Below, piece by piece: positions 9,656 through 29,639 of a DNA stretch of 64,000 nt. Made by a program: the position numbers and the translations under genes. Every line of letters starts with the position of its first letter. The first letter of the stretch is position 1. Where the stretch lies: positions 1 through 64,000 of the forward strand of contig CAWGPD010000004.1 in NCBI GenBank assembly GCA_963824385.1, read 5' to 3'. The notes below the pieces were generated by a model that saw nothing but the letters and a program-made list of their open reading frames with translations, did not search any database and was not told the DNA's origin. The DNA comes from an uncultured Nitrososphaerota archaeon (lineage in GTDB: Archaea; Thermoproteota; Nitrososphaeria; Nitrososphaerales; Nitrosopumilaceae).

Positions 9656-9730
9656 GGATCGGTAGTCTAGCCTGGTTAGGATATCGCACTCACACTGCGG
9701 GGGTCGCTGGTTCAAATCCGGCCCGATCCA
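9656..9730 (+). tRNA. tRNA-Val(CAC), intronless, CCA not encoded
   Basis: Acceptor stem GGATCGG/CCGATCC, anticodon arm TCGCA-CTCACAC-TGCGG, T-loop GTTCAAATC, discriminator A. Confidence 0.95.
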
Positions 9731-20192: not shown

Positions 20193-20729
20193 ATGAATAC
20201 ACAAAGTCTAGTAGCGCACAAAAAGTTGCTTGCTATCATAATTGGTGTGGCAATAATTGCTACAGCAGGAATGTCAGCAGCATCAGCACAAACTAGTCCG
20301 TCAGGTCATACAAGACCAACAATCACTGGTTCAATCAATATTGAACAGACACTCATGTCAAAAGTGACAGTAACTTTCGCTGCTGCCTCAACAACTGCAG
20401 CAGGTGGTTCAACTGCATCACCAATTACAGGTGGACAAGTGATTAGTGGTAGCTTGAAACCAATGCAAGGATATCTAGTATATGCATTCAAAGTAATTGA
20501 TAGCAACAACAAGGTATATTCCGTAATTGTTGATCCTTCAAGTGGAGCAGTACTATATGCTTCAACAGGTCATACATTCCATGGATTTGGAATGGGCGGT
20601 CATGGCATGGGTCACGCAAGAGGCATGATGCATGGACACCATATGGGTGCCGGTGCATGGAAATCACAAAATGCCACATCAAGCACAACAACCAATCCAG
20701 CTGACTGGACTACAAACGGATTACAATAA
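20193..20729 (+). CDS. Secreted PepSY-like protein with Gly/His/Met-rich tail (copy 2)
   Basis: Near-identical to 11395-11895 over the signal peptide and core. Confidence 0.7.
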   Translation: MNTQSLVAHKKLLAIIIGVAIIATAGMSAASAQTSPSGHTRPTITGSINIEQTLMSKVTVTFAAASTTAAGGSTASPITGGQVISGSLKPMQGYLVYAFKVIDSNNKVYSVIVDPSSGAVLYASTGHTFHGFGMGGHGMGHARGMMHGHHMGAGAWKSQNATSSTTTNPADWTTNGLQ

Positions 20730-21055: not shown

Positions 21056-23607
21056 CTATTTCCAAAAGAATTGGTCCAATCCAGTTTGCTTGGGAGCGCC
21101 AATTAGGCTTGCAAAATCAAGGTCCATCGAAGATAGAATCTGGTCAAACGTACTTTCCATAAACTCCATGTATTTTGGAGTGTCAATCTCGTCTGGCCGT
21201 GCCATCTCTACAGGTTTTACTCCGGGCTTGTTGATGATTTTCACATATGATATGATATCTCCTTTTTTTATCTCTCTGGTTTGTTCCAATAATTTTGCTG
21301 CCCTAATGTGCTGTGGAATGGTCTTGACATATTCTGATGGGGCTTTGCTTATCATGACATTAAACGCAAGGTCTGTCAATGGAATTTGTTTTGCCTTTAA
21401 TCTCTTGGCATATCCTGATATCATGTCACCAATTTTTGCCTTGGATTGTGAGAACTCTTGCTCGTTCTGAACTTGGGACAATATGTCCAATATCTCATAA
21501 AACAAATGTCTGATAAATGGGGGAGTATGTGATTTCTTTCCTGTTAGACCCTTGACATCAACCTTGCCATCTTTTTGTACTCCTAGATAATTTTTCTTTC
21601 GTGTACTAAATACCACATAACGATATTCTTTATCCAAATCCAGGTCAACACCAAATTCTGTCTTTGCCCAATCAACTACTTGCTGTACTTGTTCCCTTGA
21701 TGGGGCTTTTAAAAATAATGAATCAGTATCTCCGTACAATACCTCGATTCCAGTTGACTTGCATTTCTCAATTGTTTCTAAAATGGTATATCGTCCAACT
21801 GCTGTTGTTGCTTCAGCAACTGGTAAACAGTACAATGGAAATATTTCTGCCCCCATTACACCATACTTGCATTTAAAATAACTTTGAGCGCTTGACTGAC
21901 AACGGTATACAATTGCTTTTGATCTGCAGAAAGACTTGGGTTTTTGGACAAACTCTTGTAATAGTTGACACGCAAGTCTCGCAGAGAACCAATAAGCATG
22001 GCAGTAAGCCCATTCTTCTTGGTACATACCCAGTGACTTGTTCCTGGAATGGTGTTTTTTTTACATTCGTCATGGGTACAGCGTACTGTCTCATAGGACA
22101 AGTTTCTCACTTTGATTATACTTGGATACAGACTGGCAAAGTCCATCACGGAGACATTAAAGTGAATTCCCTCTGTTGGTTCTACAACTAGCCCTCCACG
22201 ATATTTTTTGTCTTTTATTACTGCTTCAGTAGATGCAGTTCCTGATTTTAGGTCAAGTTCATCCCTTCTTGGAATCAAAAAGTTGTGTTTTCTGTGTTCA
22301 TAATAAAACAGACTACGAATCCACTGTGAGACTCCCATCCTTGATATGTCATCAATTGGCATTCTTCCAATCCTTGTAATTACAACAAGTAGATTCATCA
22401 AAAGATCATTGTTAAAACTGGTAAGCTTTTGCGTTATTCTTGCATCATTAAAACAATAGTTTGCCAATTCGTAAAATGACAAATCTTCCAATTCGCCTTC
22501 ATACTCTGTCTTTGATTCTTCGATGAGTCCTTCACAGATGCTGTTTAGCGAAAAATCATTGTACTTGTGCGAGAACGCATAGATTTGAAATGAACGATTA
22601 GAAAATGCGCGATACAAGTCAATATGTACTCCTTTTTTCAGAGTGGCAGAATCACGCATCATTATTAGCGGAATCTCTTTTAGTGGAACACCTAGGCGTT
22701 CTGCTCTGTTATACATAAACGGCATATCAAAATCATCTCCGTTAAATGTCATGACAAATGGATAACTTTCTAAAATTTTGAACGCGTCTTTTATCATGTC
22801 TGCTTCCTTGTCTTCTTCATAAAAAGAAATTTTGACCCCTTCTGGAAGTTCGTTTGTTCCCATCGGACGTCCTGCCCTTTTTAGAACAAAGACTGCCTTG
22901 AAATCATCACTTGCACAAAATCCTATCGCCGTAATTTTTTTATCTGCAATTTTTGCATCTGGAAGTCTACCTGTCTCAGATTCTACCTCTATATCAAAGG
23001 TAATTCGTTTTATGTTGGGTATGGGTTGGTTGAGAAGGTTTGCCCATTCGCTTATGTGGTCTTGAAATTCTTTGGAATCGATAATTCCCATGTTTGTTAC
23101 TTTGTCAAACAGCAGACCTTTGAGTGCAAGTTGAACCTCGTCTGGTATGGGATAATCATATTCTTTGAGTTTGCCTTCTTCAACACTGTAATATCTTCCA
23201 ACAATTAGAGAATTATCATACAAATAATTTTCATAATATTTTATGTCAGATTCCCACGTCTCCATCATATTTCGTATGCTCTTGTCAGTCTGGGTTCCAC
23301 CAATTGCAAGCGGATCTGATACCGTGATTTTTGTAATATTGATCATTCTATCTTTTAGCAAGTCTTGTCGTTGTACTCGTTCTAGTTTTATGACATCAGT
23401 TCTACTTGACAGAAATTTTAATTCTTCAGGATCTAATTTTGAGTAACAATATGGTTTGTGGCCTGTATTGTCTGACCAGAGTTTTAGTGTCTGGGATTTT
23501 GGTTCATAAAATTTCAGTACTGCGCATTTTTTCATTCCATCATATGATGCAGAGACAAGTAGTGCAGGTGGCATTGTAGTGGTTACTTCTTCTACTGCGT
23601 TTGACAT
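21056..23607 (-). CDS. polB: Family B DNA polymerase; apparent 1-nt deletion near 21866 splits the ORF
   Basis: Exo I FDIEV, Exo II FNGDDFD, motif A DFASLYPS, motif B KVILNAS|YG broken by the frameshift, motif C YGDTDS, C-terminal PIP box QTGLDQFF. Confidence 0.93.
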
Positions 23608-27139: not shown

Positions 27140-27202
27140 ATTGGTTTAGAGATGATTGTTTTTCAAAAGATATTTAACATCAGAGATTATCCGAGATTGT
27201 AT

Positions 27203-27457
27203 ATGATTACATACATTCTTGCAACATGCATTCCAGGAAATGAAAAAGAGGTCATACAAAAAATTAAAGAATTGTCAAATATTGTTGAAGTAAACGGTAT
27301 CATGGGAAAATATGACATATTTGTTAAAATTGCTGCAGACGATGTGACAAAGGTAGATTCCACCATAAGTAAAGTAAGAACTGTTCCACATGTCACAAGT
27401 ACAATCTCAATACCTGTACTTTATGGTCAGGGTGGAACAATTGATGAAGAAAAGTAG
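27203..27457 (+). CDS. Lrp/AsnC ligand-binding domain protein
   Basis: YIL..C.PG.E..V, G.YDIFVK, VTST motifs. Confidence 0.85.
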   Translation: MITYILATCIPGNEKEVIQKIKELSNIVEVNGIMGKYDIFVKIAADDVTKVDSTISKVRTVPHVTSTISIPVLYGQGGTIDEEK

Positions 27458-27571: not shown

Positions 27572-27967
27572 ATGGATAAGGTAATTGAAGTTGCAGATCC
27601 TGCGAGAATAGACAGGGTACCTGACAAGACAATTGTATTGATGTCTGAAGGAAAATTCTTGGAACGAGGACATCTAGTAAAAAACATTGCCTTGAACCTG
27701 TATGTCCAAAAAAAAGACGAGATTCTTGGACCCTACTCTCTAATCACAGTGCTTGTTGAAACAGATAAAGGAATTATAGAAATGACATATGATGAAGGAT
27801 GGAGAGGTACAAATGCATTGGAAGAAGCAGCCGCGTTTCTTACATCGCATCTGGGCATTTCTGGGCTCATACTACGTTCTATAATACAGTTAGACCAGTC
27901 CACAAACAAAAATAATTTATTGGTCCTAGAATCAGACTATCAAGACCCCGAATATTATGAAATTTGA
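27572..27967 (+). CDS. Hypothetical protein
   Basis: 131-aa ORF. Confidence 0.65.
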   Translation: MDKVIEVADPARIDRVPDKTIVLMSEGKFLERGHLVKNIALNLYVQKKDEILGPYSLITVLVETDKGIIEMTYDEGWRGTNALEEAAAFLTSHLGISGLILRSIIQLDQSTNKNNLLVLESDYQDPEYYEI

Positions 27968-28094
27968 AAGAAAACCAATAGAAATTACTCCTACATGTGC
28001 CATGTGCTCACGTCCTGTAAAGGAACACACTCCAGAACAAATGAAGTTGTGTACTGAAGAAAGAAGAAAATCACTGGGATCTAAAAAAATCTAG
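27957..28094 (+). CDS. 45-aa CxxC-H-C zinc-binding microprotein
   Basis: Manual translation MKFERKPIEITPTCAMCSRPVKEHTPEQMKLCTEERRKSLGSKKI*. Confidence 0.55.
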   Translation: MKFERKPIEITPTCAMCSRPVKEHTPEQMKLCTEERRKSLGSKKI

Positions 28095-28207: not shown

Positions 28208-28399
28208 TTGGTATCTCAGCATCCTTCATTACGTAAATCAACGTATGATTCGTTTGAAATCATATCTTTAGATTGTAAAGTTTCCATATATTATTACAAG
28301 GACGGCACACTTGCAATTCAAGGTGATGAGAAAAATCCTTTTCATCGTAGAATAATACGTCAGACCAACAAACTAATTTCTAAAAAAGACTATCTGTGA
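28208..28399 (+). CDS. Small protein resembling a TBP-like fold; 5' part may be frameshifted from an ATG near 28140
   Basis: VSIYYYKDGTLAIQG resembles the Y.sG.l..QG pattern of RNase HIII N-terminal-like domains. Confidence 0.4.
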   Translation: MVSQHPSLRKSTYDSFEIISLDCKVSIYYYKDGTLAIQGDEKNPFHRRIIRQTNKLISKKDYL

Positions 28400-28480
28400 A
28401 TAAAATGTGTAATTTCTTATCCATTTAGATCTATAGATTCTATATAGATAGTCCTTTTATTCCATGATGCTGTATAATAT

Positions 28481-28710
28481 GCTGTCATCCGACCGACAAA
28501 TGTGAAGACTCGCTTGACAGAAAAGAACTTCAGGTAAGGACTTGATTTTCTTGCAAAGCGGTGTTTGAACATTTCTGGTTAGGGAAGAAGTGTGTGAAAA
28601 CACAATTCTTTAGAAATGAACAACAATGGCAAGGAGGGAAAGGTAGTAGAATGCGTTGGCATGTTATTACTAGGAATTGCTATGTCCACTCAAGGACGGA
28701 TGACATTTTT
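28481..28710 (+). ncRNA. Candidate ~225-nt multi-helix non-coding RNA
   Basis: Terminal stem TGTCATCCG/CGGATGACA, three internal hairpins with G-U pairs, upstream TTTTAT box, downstream T5, no long ORF. Confidence 0.6.
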
Positions 28711-28979: not shown

Positions 28980-29639
28980 TTACAGGTCTAACCCACTTGC
29001 ATCTTGGAGTTTTTCTGTGAGCTCAAGATAGGTATACGGGTCTAGCTGTTTTGCAAATCCCTTGTCGATATTGATTAGATATATGGAATGCAGGTGGGCA
29101 TTTAGTATGTCATCTGCATCAATTGGTGGATTTTTATAAAATCTATCTACCAGGGATTTAATTTTCTGAATTTCTTCTGGTTTTCTATCCTTTGGAGGTT
29201 TAAGGAACAATTTTGGAATTGGCAAAATTCCGACAACTGGTGTTGCTAATGCAAATTTTGAGCAATGCTTACTATATCTTGCAATCTTACTTGATATTCT
29301 TGCCACATAGTAGTCTATGGTATCTAGTGCGTGGTCTGGTGGAGTAAATCCTGTTTCAATCTCCATGATAAATGTACCATCACCTTTGGTTGCAAATACA
29401 TCGCAGACTAGAATATTGGAAAGTTGTTTTTCTATATCTACAGTATATCCGTAAGATATGAGATTTGAGGCACAGATTATCTCCAATACTGAATGGTTGA
29501 TTTTGACAAGGTTTTTTTTATATAATTCAATTAGTCTCTCTCTTACAAAATTTATCTTGGCCTTGATTTCAGGAGTCTGTCCGGTTGTTAGTTTTTCAGC
29601 CACAGTGTATACATCTTCAGTAAATTTCTCTAAATCCAA
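28980..29639 (-). CDS. Hypothetical protein with PD-(D/E)XK-like motif
   Basis: CDVFATKG..TFIMEIETG resembles a restriction-endonuclease-like core. Confidence 0.7.
   Translation of the reverse strand: MDLEKFTEDVYTVAEKLTTGQTPEIKAKINFVRERLIELYKKNLVKINHSVLEIICASNLISYGYTVDIEKQLSNILVCDVFATKGDGTFIMEIETGFTPPDHALDTIDYYVARISSKIARYSKHCSKFALATPVVGILPIPKLFLKPPKDRKPEEIQKIKSLVDRFYKNPPIDADDILNAHLHSIYLINIDKGFAKQLDPYTYLELTEKLQDASGLDL

Follow-up and report, generated by a model that had tools for sequence, protein, structure and literature searches.

A structured RNA gene and its neighbours

The window analysed here, 64,000 nucleotides from an uncultured Nitrososphaerota archaeon (GCA_963824385.1, contig CAWGPD010000004.1, positions 1 to 64,000 of the forward strand), carries on its plus strand, at 28481..28710, what is almost certainly a real structured non-coding RNA gene of ~225-230 nt, with a closing stem, a purine-rich internal loop, a four-way junction and three arms. 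Convergent with it, on the minus strand at 28980..29639, lies a gene whose product, an orphan protein of 219 aa, has a predicted PD-(D/E)XK nuclease fold and is a putative partner of the RNA. A preliminary description of this DNA had overlooked this neighbour and had placed the RNA among genes for small zinc-binding microproteins instead. One such gene does occur, at 27957-28094 (+), where a 45-aa ORF with a CxxC...H...C motif and no Pfam match likely encodes a zinc-binding microprotein; the rest of that claim was overstated, and the remaining small ORFs near the RNA have no Pfam match. The same 45-aa ORF also stands upstream of the RNA in close relatives. Pfam identifies an Lrp/AsnC-domain protein at 27152-27457. 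A 63-aa ORF at 28208-28399 (+) looks frameshifted or decayed at loci L036 and L037 and is missing at L034, L035 and L040; it is likely an eroding insertion.

All helices listed in the preliminary description were borne out. The ends of the RNA pair at nine of nine positions (P1, 28483-91 with 28697-705). The 5' strand of the closing stem (28483..28509) runs from P1 through the basal purine-rich loop to P1b (GTG, 28502-04) and P1c (GAC, 28507-09), and the 3' strand (28684..28705) returns through P1c, P1b, a bulge and P1. The arms, of which there are indeed three, had been thought to radiate from the end stem, but the stem first extends through GTG/CAC and GAC/GTC, and the arms therefore join in a four-way junction. 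Arm 1 (28511..28560) is built of CGCTT/AAGCG, AGAAAA/TTTTCT and TCAGGT-aagg-ACTTGA, and its tip (28530-45) bears the family motif GG-N-[RRAG loop]-N-CYY. Arm 2 (28570..28618) comprises CATTTCTG/TAGAAATG with the cap TGTGT-GAAA-ACACA; its sequence and length vary among homologs while pairing is kept, and the GNRA tetraloop noted earlier is present in the window but variable elsewhere in the family. Arm 3 (28626..28683) comprises ATGGCAA/TTGCTAT, GGTAGTAG/TTATTACT and ATGC-gttg-GCAT. The complete model of the window element has 64 pairs, six of them G-U, counting two short helices added in this analysis.

The plus strand of the element folds at -74.3 kcal/mol (z -5.45), a stability reached by 0 of 200 shuffles; the minus strand folds at z -3.62 in the shuffle test. 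When the window sequence is folded alone, the lowest-energy structure disrupts the base of arm 2, and the four-way model (-66.8 kcal/mol) is ~7.5 kcal/mol costlier, yet it is the one backed by the homologs. As had been stated, there is no substantial ORF: only ORFs of 48-55 aa overlap the element. Homolog lengths spread over all three classes modulo 3, and an open plus-strand frame of any kind occurs in 8 of 55 homolog rows.

Conservation of the fold

Covariation across homologs, named in the preliminary description among the checks on its RNA-gene reading, was found in two alignments. In an unfitted MAFFT alignment of 13 divergent copies, judged against a structure drawn by hand from these same rows, pairing holds in 91.7% of cells, two-sided change is seen in 24 of the 70 pairs, and 0 of 500 shuffles score as high. 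Compensatory change reached 62 of 70 pairs and 90.0% of cells were paired in an alignment of 48 rows, again with 0 of 500 shuffles as high and with slid controls at 31-40%, this alignment having been fitted to the model and hence leaning to the model's structure. An RNAalifold consensus of close homologs mis-paired arm 3, and the hand-drawn structure was used instead; an unfiltered column-pair scan was too noisy for use.

Conserved sequence is limited to short loop motifs, with no long unpaired conserved stretch. The basal loop has the consensus C-R-R-N-A-N-A-R-G facing Y-Y-G-A-R. At the tip of arm 1 a G-C pair is invariant (48/48), and the loop reads AAAG in 26, GAAG in 14 and AAGG in 9 of 55 rows. 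Arm 3 carries the motif GGC-AAA-CC / GG-AAA-GCC-ACAU in 49 of 55 rows; in the derived subfamily to which the window RNA belongs, this motif is partly decayed.

Within the basal loop, two 5' segments lying six bases apart covary with identical 3' bases. Column 22 pairs with column 364 in 55/55 rows, and column 16 tracks the same column in 50/55; the highest mutual information, 1.51 bits, belongs to column 17 versus column 363, though 13/55 of the pairs there are non-standard. Such double covariation would fit either base triples or a switch between two registers.

Nine Nitrosotalea loci, in nine genomes, hold an extra 5' domain of ~95 nt that separates the core from the common promoter; in the resulting ~340-nt form, domain and core would make up one transcript. 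The extra domain (L096, L098-L105) is a three-way junction closed by CAGAUAGC/GCUAUCUG, ~110 nt 5' of the core RNA. It was not found in the genome of the window; genome G355 has one short and one long copy of the RNA.

Promoter, terminator and presence in RNA data

The RNA had been credited with a promoter and a terminator of its own. The TATA-like box TTTTAT was confirmed at 28455-60 (+), 22 nt 5' of the closing stem, and the T5 tract, a likely archaeal terminator, at 28706-10 (+), directly after it. A TATA-like hexamer lies upstream of 41 of 55 homologs, compared with 305 of 2750 random windows. A run of T4 or longer was seen near the end of only 28 of 55 homologs, so that the terminator is less general than the widespread promoter. 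The G+C content of the RNA exceeds that of its locus in 54 of 55 homologs.

Further upstream, at 28439..28449 (+), stands a conserved, Nitrosotalea-specific promoter element, TCTATATAGAT (consensus near WCTATAWTGAT), which keeps its distance to the TATA-like box in most Nitrosotalea homologs, long forms included. Its pattern was found once in the genome of the window, and the element is likely a site for a regulator or activator. At one long-form locus, L099, a tnpB-like gene ends just 5' of the TATA-like box, and the usual upstream element is altered there.

Eight RNA runs from four studies of peat, soil and sediment contain the element. Small data sets of soil and peat RNA suffice to show it. 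Among the contigs listed, those on the element span 28494-28709, some of them free of mismatches over 155 nt, and those from runs of two studies begin at 28494; since the runs were picked for holding the element and have no DNA control, these contigs speak for presence, not for level, strand or ends. For the same reasons, and because the data consist of contigs alone, stretches left uncovered in the RNA runs are no evidence of silence.

Distribution of the RNA family

BLAST recovered full-length copies with 74-94% identity in 28 other Nitrosotalea genomes (62 searched) and no real homolog beyond that genus. A covariance search with model R1 found the RNA in 43 of 63 Nitrosotalea genomes and in none of 133 genomes from other genera of the family. 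Model R2, built from the 13 divergent copies, found it in 40 of 151 genomes of the order, distributed over seven families, which is an undercount: a laxer search recovered copies in two sampled genomes (G008, G164) that R2 had missed, and a copy in G509 was likewise missed by a genome-wide model search. Because true copies were skipped, RNA-negative genomes are to be read as 'not found' rather than as lacking the RNA. This applies to the Nitrosopumilus-like genera and to some Nitrosotalea genomes, where the model searches did not find the RNA and the promoter pattern occurs at control level. A short arm-3 model, R3, contributed no further copies.

A pattern scan of all GTDB genomes returned 69 stretches, of which 25, all archaeal, are full-length homologs; the other 44 matched the model partially or not at all, so that the bacterial ones were rejected. 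Outside the order, the RNA occurs in family f34, with pattern matches in 11 of 24 genomes and model confirmation at 6 of 6 tested loci; the protein adjoining the RNA there clusters with Ca. Terraquivivens entries. It was also found in one f21 genome (1 of 40 searched) and seen by eye at one f46 locus. Eight pattern matches outside f34 failed the model, weak matches in L252 (an arm-like hairpin) and L272 (5039-5116) lie inside coding sequence, and two pattern scans of viral contigs gave 0 matches. The range suggested at first was underestimated, for the family reaches non-ammonia-oxidising and hot-spring lineages. It is an ancient family that spans globally important ammonia oxidisers as well as deep hot-spring lineages.

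Copy number varies, some genomes having several copies. One genome of Ca. Nitrososphaera maunauluensis has seven RNA copies (L122, L150, L167, L169, L185, L186, L202) and one nuclease gene; of the copies, six were compared, and these are 69-97% alike and all have a TATA-like box.

Comparison with known RNA classes

Against Rfam 15, no match at gathering score falls on the element, and across the whole window the only such match is a tRNA at 9656. Lowering the threshold to E <= 10 over 1.2 kb round the element yielded sub-threshold chance matches only. Scans of 14 diverse homolog loci gave no match on the element, and 40 nuclease-gene loci returned tRNAs and one SRP RNA only.

Neither the helix-8 signature of SRP RNA nor the P4 signature of RNase P RNA had been seen at the outset, and the homologs agree. 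The helix-8 pattern occurs in 1 of 55 homologs, and the genome's archaeal SRP RNA (RF01857) sits at C2:4351-4663; the CR-I and CR-V patterns of archaeal RNase P RNA occur in 0 of 55 each, and that gene (RF00373) lies at C4:336833-337108. The window RNA resembles SRP RNA in its long closing helix and in the GNAG-like, often GNRA-like loops on neighbouring arms but differs in its four-way junction; with RNase P RNA it shares paired ends, a multi-branch fold and A-rich conserved loops, but not the CR-I or CR-V patterns. In a study of N. viennensis, SRP and RNase P RNAs are named as the dominant ncRNAs (PMC13475601).

Other classes fared no better. The box C/D sequence RUGAUGA occurs in 9 of 55 homologs and a terminal ACA, as in H/ACA guide RNAs, in 4 of 55, neither being part of the consensus. 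The c-di-GMP-I riboswitch pattern GGCAAAC...GGNACGCAAAG was found in 0 of 55; that riboswitch has no Rfam match here, and the next gene is often convergent. A search of genome G000 (86% complete) for the Ro60 (TROVE) protein of Y RNA particles gave 0 matches. An OMEGA RNA is contradicted by the two ends of the element, which pair and covary, and by the absence of a variable terminal guide segment. In a BLAST search of the genome, no antisense match at 90% identity or more exceeded 20 nt.

OLE, ROOL, GOLLD and the raiA motif are orphan large structured RNAs, and OLE has reportedly been linked to a protein partner through gene neighbourhood. The window RNA is, like them, stand-alone, multi-helix and strongly covarying, but it is archaeal, smaller, linked to the gene of a PD-(D/E)XK-fold protein and without Rfam match in scans that included the models of all four.

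We know of few conserved stand-alone structured archaeal RNAs beyond tRNA, rRNA, SRP, RNase P and modification guides. Literature searches found no description of the window RNA, although tables of candidate RNAs, whether supplementary or in subscription papers, could hold one, and the main text of one preprint does not mention these taxa (bioRxiv 10.64898/2026.09.22.753630). The initial view of a stand-alone, undescribed RNA is upheld by the lack of an Rfam match, the single copy, the covariation, the TATA-like box and the RNA contigs. These data support a stand-alone structured RNA gene in no catalogued family.

A predicted nuclease accompanies the RNA

The 219-aa protein has no match in Pfam, NCBIfam, PADLOC or the sequences of the PDB; 32 members of its family gave 0 matches in PADLOC, and 17 distant homologs no relevant match in Pfam. 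Its predicted structural model (pLDDT 92.6) matches SPO1766 (3dnx, Z 9.5), XisH (2okf, 9.0), AF1548 (1y88, 8.8) and NucS (2vld, 7.1), with rmsd of 2.2-3.2 A over 95-113 residues, the best being 2.2 A over 103. The core fold is common to all of these; identity, in contrast, is 12-19%, and the window protein has an extra N-terminal helical hairpin, an E-x-E motif and an invariant lysine in the next helix. No RuvC or HNH match stood among the top structural hits. Across 66 sequences, residues E70, D80, E93, E95 and K118 are conserved at 98-100%, and H49 is also conserved. With the fold and the catalytic-type residues of the PD-(D/E)XK superfamily, in an E-x-E variant, the protein is a predicted nuclease, but sharing a fold does not by itself establish function. 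An atlas hit to PF24579 (0.86) serves as a lead only.

The protein was found in 96 of 151 genomes of the order and in 130 of 301 sampled Thermoproteota genomes, and relatives are named from Bathyarchaeia, Pyrodictium and Sulfolobaceae. Nearly all genomes have one copy of its gene, with no sign of mobility. At L247 the protein adjoining the RNA has exactly the sequence of one named for Ca. Nitrosocaldus cavascurensis and islandicus; cultured hosts therefore exist in which a partnership is directly testable.

When ORFs at 51 RNA loci were clustered, the nuclease gene was the commonest neighbour (20 loci). Protein neighbours of the nuclease gene itself recur in at most 8 of 57 loci, rhomboid-like and PRT neighbours persisting in 3-4. 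RNA and nuclease gene lie no more than 1.5 kb apart in 28 of 40 genomes, in three arrangements and five families, and apart in the other 12; these 40 genomes are 38 of the R2 set and the two from the laxer search, G018 and G173 being omitted as RNA-positive genomes with no protein match. Families f1 and f6 have the two genes convergent; in f4 and f9 the nuclease gene precedes the RNA, and in f10, which supplies 19 related genomes, it lies downstream, past a PRT gene. Because kin share gene order, the lineages are not independent. Outside the order, all 10 f34 genomes for which both positions are known, compared by hand, have the two genes side by side and convergent. At f6 loci L110 and L111 the nuclease gene is closely preceded by an SRP RNA gene, and the new RNA has a tRNA gene on its other side.

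The protein is present in 38 of 40 RNA-positive genomes of the order. A further 29 Nitrosopumilaceae genomes have the protein with no RNA detected, as do all 5 of the near-complete Nitrosotalea genomes that were RNA-negative, and many Nitrosotalea RNA copies adjoin other genes.

A second, rod-like RNA beside nuclease orthologs

Orthologs of the nuclease gene at 40 loci outside the order were the subject of a blind fold scan, after a first pass over 127 gaps at 74 loci. Of the gaps that touch the gene, 13 of 33 are strongly folded (z < -5), as against 1 of 38 other gaps; four of the 13 hold f34 copies already known. Sulfolobaceae-like loci showed no folded neighbour in the scan.

At least eight gaps carry an RNA of a second, rod-like and undescribed type, found in Bathyarchaeia-type genomes. 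It is 110-240 nt long, is divergent from the nuclease ortholog and is preceded by a TATA box of its own; its closing stem is accompanied by modular arms, one or two in number. Its basal loop, R-A-G-Y-A-V-G-C facing G-C-U-U-A-G-A, is purine-rich like that of the window family. The scan placed it at L255:3254-3394(+), L256:2249-2397(-), L259:3195-3353(+), L262:2228-2368(-), L263:2076-2245(-) and L264:3441-3677(+), and also at L252, L254, L261 and L267. The rod-like RNA has no Rfam match at gathering score. Since neither R2 nor R3 matches it and a 7-row alignment was poor, we regard it as a parallel or distant form and not as a proven homolog. In an f36 genome, a near-perfect hairpin of ~190 nt (L272:2140-2380(-), z below -15) lies just downstream of the nuclease ortholog.

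Possible roles of the RNA

The reading that we favour, tentatively, is that this separately promoted RNA gene yields an RNA that may bind the adjoining predicted nuclease as a decoy or regulatory scaffold. The RNA would be made from its own TATA box as a stable molecule, shielded by its paired ends. The purine-rich basal loop, likely triple-folded, and the RRAG-capped tip of arm 1 would offer a surface for protein binding, the variable arms might serve as spacers or substrate mimics, and the RNA would restrain or tune the nuclease rather than guide it to a sequence. The choice of a decoy or scaffold follows from the short tertiary-type motifs, the paired ends, an enzyme that is the sole partner suggested by gene order, and the ability of that enzyme to exist alone. 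Because several lineages keep the protein without detectable RNA, the RNA would be an accessory subunit. Against a partnership speak the 12 unlinked genomes, the protein-bearing genomes in which no RNA was found, the two RNA-positive genomes with no protein match, the genome with seven RNA copies but a single nuclease gene, and the kinship of the lineages compared.

A wider and still conjectural proposal is of an ancient Thermoproteota ribonucleoprotein, in which a vertically inherited PD-(D/E)XK nuclease would be joined by a dedicated RNA in four-way-junction form (Nitrososphaeria and relatives), two-domain long form (some Nitrosotalea) or rod-like form (Bathyarchaeia-type), docking via a triple-stabilised basal loop. 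If that were true, the pair would represent a new class of RNA-controlled or RNA-assisted nuclease, and a new kind of ribonucleoprotein in its PD-(D/E)XK fold. Either way, the RNA points to a specific candidate partner, an uncharacterised nuclease-fold protein.

If the favoured reading holds, the RNA would work somewhat as a type III antitoxin or an OMEGA scaffold does. In type III toxin-antitoxin pairs (ToxIN; AbiF with its RNA) a nuclease gene stands beside a structured RNA that restrains it. The window pair resembles it in that a nuclease-fold gene adjoins a structured RNA that would restrain its product. In contrast to such systems, the protein here has a different fold, is encoded by a single-copy, core-like gene and is kept in genomes without the RNA, and the RNA has its own promoter, a varying orientation and no upstream repeats. 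Membership in a known toxin or defence family found no support in PADLOC (0/32), Pfam or NCBIfam.

A somewhat improbable alternative, though the most serious, is that the RNA is an independent housekeeping or regulatory molecule serving a different partner, such as the machinery of transcription or translation, as 6S and Ms1 RNAs do, and that its proximity to the nuclease gene is inherited gene order. The unlinked genomes, the multiple copies in some genomes and the many genomes that keep the protein without the RNA all fit this view, and the Nitrosotalea-specific upstream element suggests regulation of its own. Against it, the linkage outlasts inversions and covers more lineages than any protein neighbour, and in other lineages folded RNAs adjoin orthologs of the nuclease gene at a rate well above background.

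That the RNA is an activating scaffold or guide, part of an OMEGA-like RNA-guided or RNA-assisted enzyme, we consider unlikely. OMEGA systems comprise IscB or TnpB with omega-RNA, and HEARO. The size of the window RNA falls within that of known nuclease scaffolds, and an RNA of 200-350 nt beside a nuclease gene is a trait shared with OMEGA systems; the near-invariant catalytic-type residues and the extra 5' domain at the nine Nitrosotalea loci would also suit an active enzyme complex. However, the window pair has no RuvC or HNH match, the paired ends leave no variable unpaired guide to be seen, the gene is almost always single-copy without sign of mobility, and the protein is kept where the RNA is missing.

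A cis-acting leader, attenuator or riboswitch is very unlikely. It would suit f10, where the RNA, lacking a U-tract, lies just upstream of the PRT gene, with the nuclease gene following on that strand; two-register pairing could act as a switch, and arm 3 resembles part of the c-di-GMP-I riboswitch. The next gene, however, is convergent in the window, in f6 and in f34, the RNA of f4 and f9 lies downstream of the nuclease gene, downstream genes vary widely, and the c-di-GMP-I pattern itself is absent from the homologs.

Least credible of all is an origin as a MITE, the refuting case named in the preliminary description, or as some other non-autonomous mobile element, whole or relic. Although the paired ends, the varied locations, the seven copies in one genome and the tnpB-like genes near two long-form loci (L099, L104) might suggest it, the element is single-copy in the window's genome by BLAST and family profile, its ends covary, G-U pairs included, instead of keeping their sequence, six of the seven copies inspected show no target-site duplication and are as divergent as noted above with TATA boxes of their own, and viral contigs hold no match to either pattern.

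Other genes in the window

Two further loci in the window deserve mention. At 20193-20729 (+), a gene encodes a 178-aa protein that has a PepSY domain, starts with a hydrophobic stretch at its N-terminus and ends in a tail rich in His, Gly and Met; many RNA contigs from peat runs fall on this gene. At 21056-23607 (-), a family B DNA polymerase-like gene is split into two overlapping ORFs of 583 and 323 aa, an arrangement whose sequence suggests a frameshift or an assembly error.
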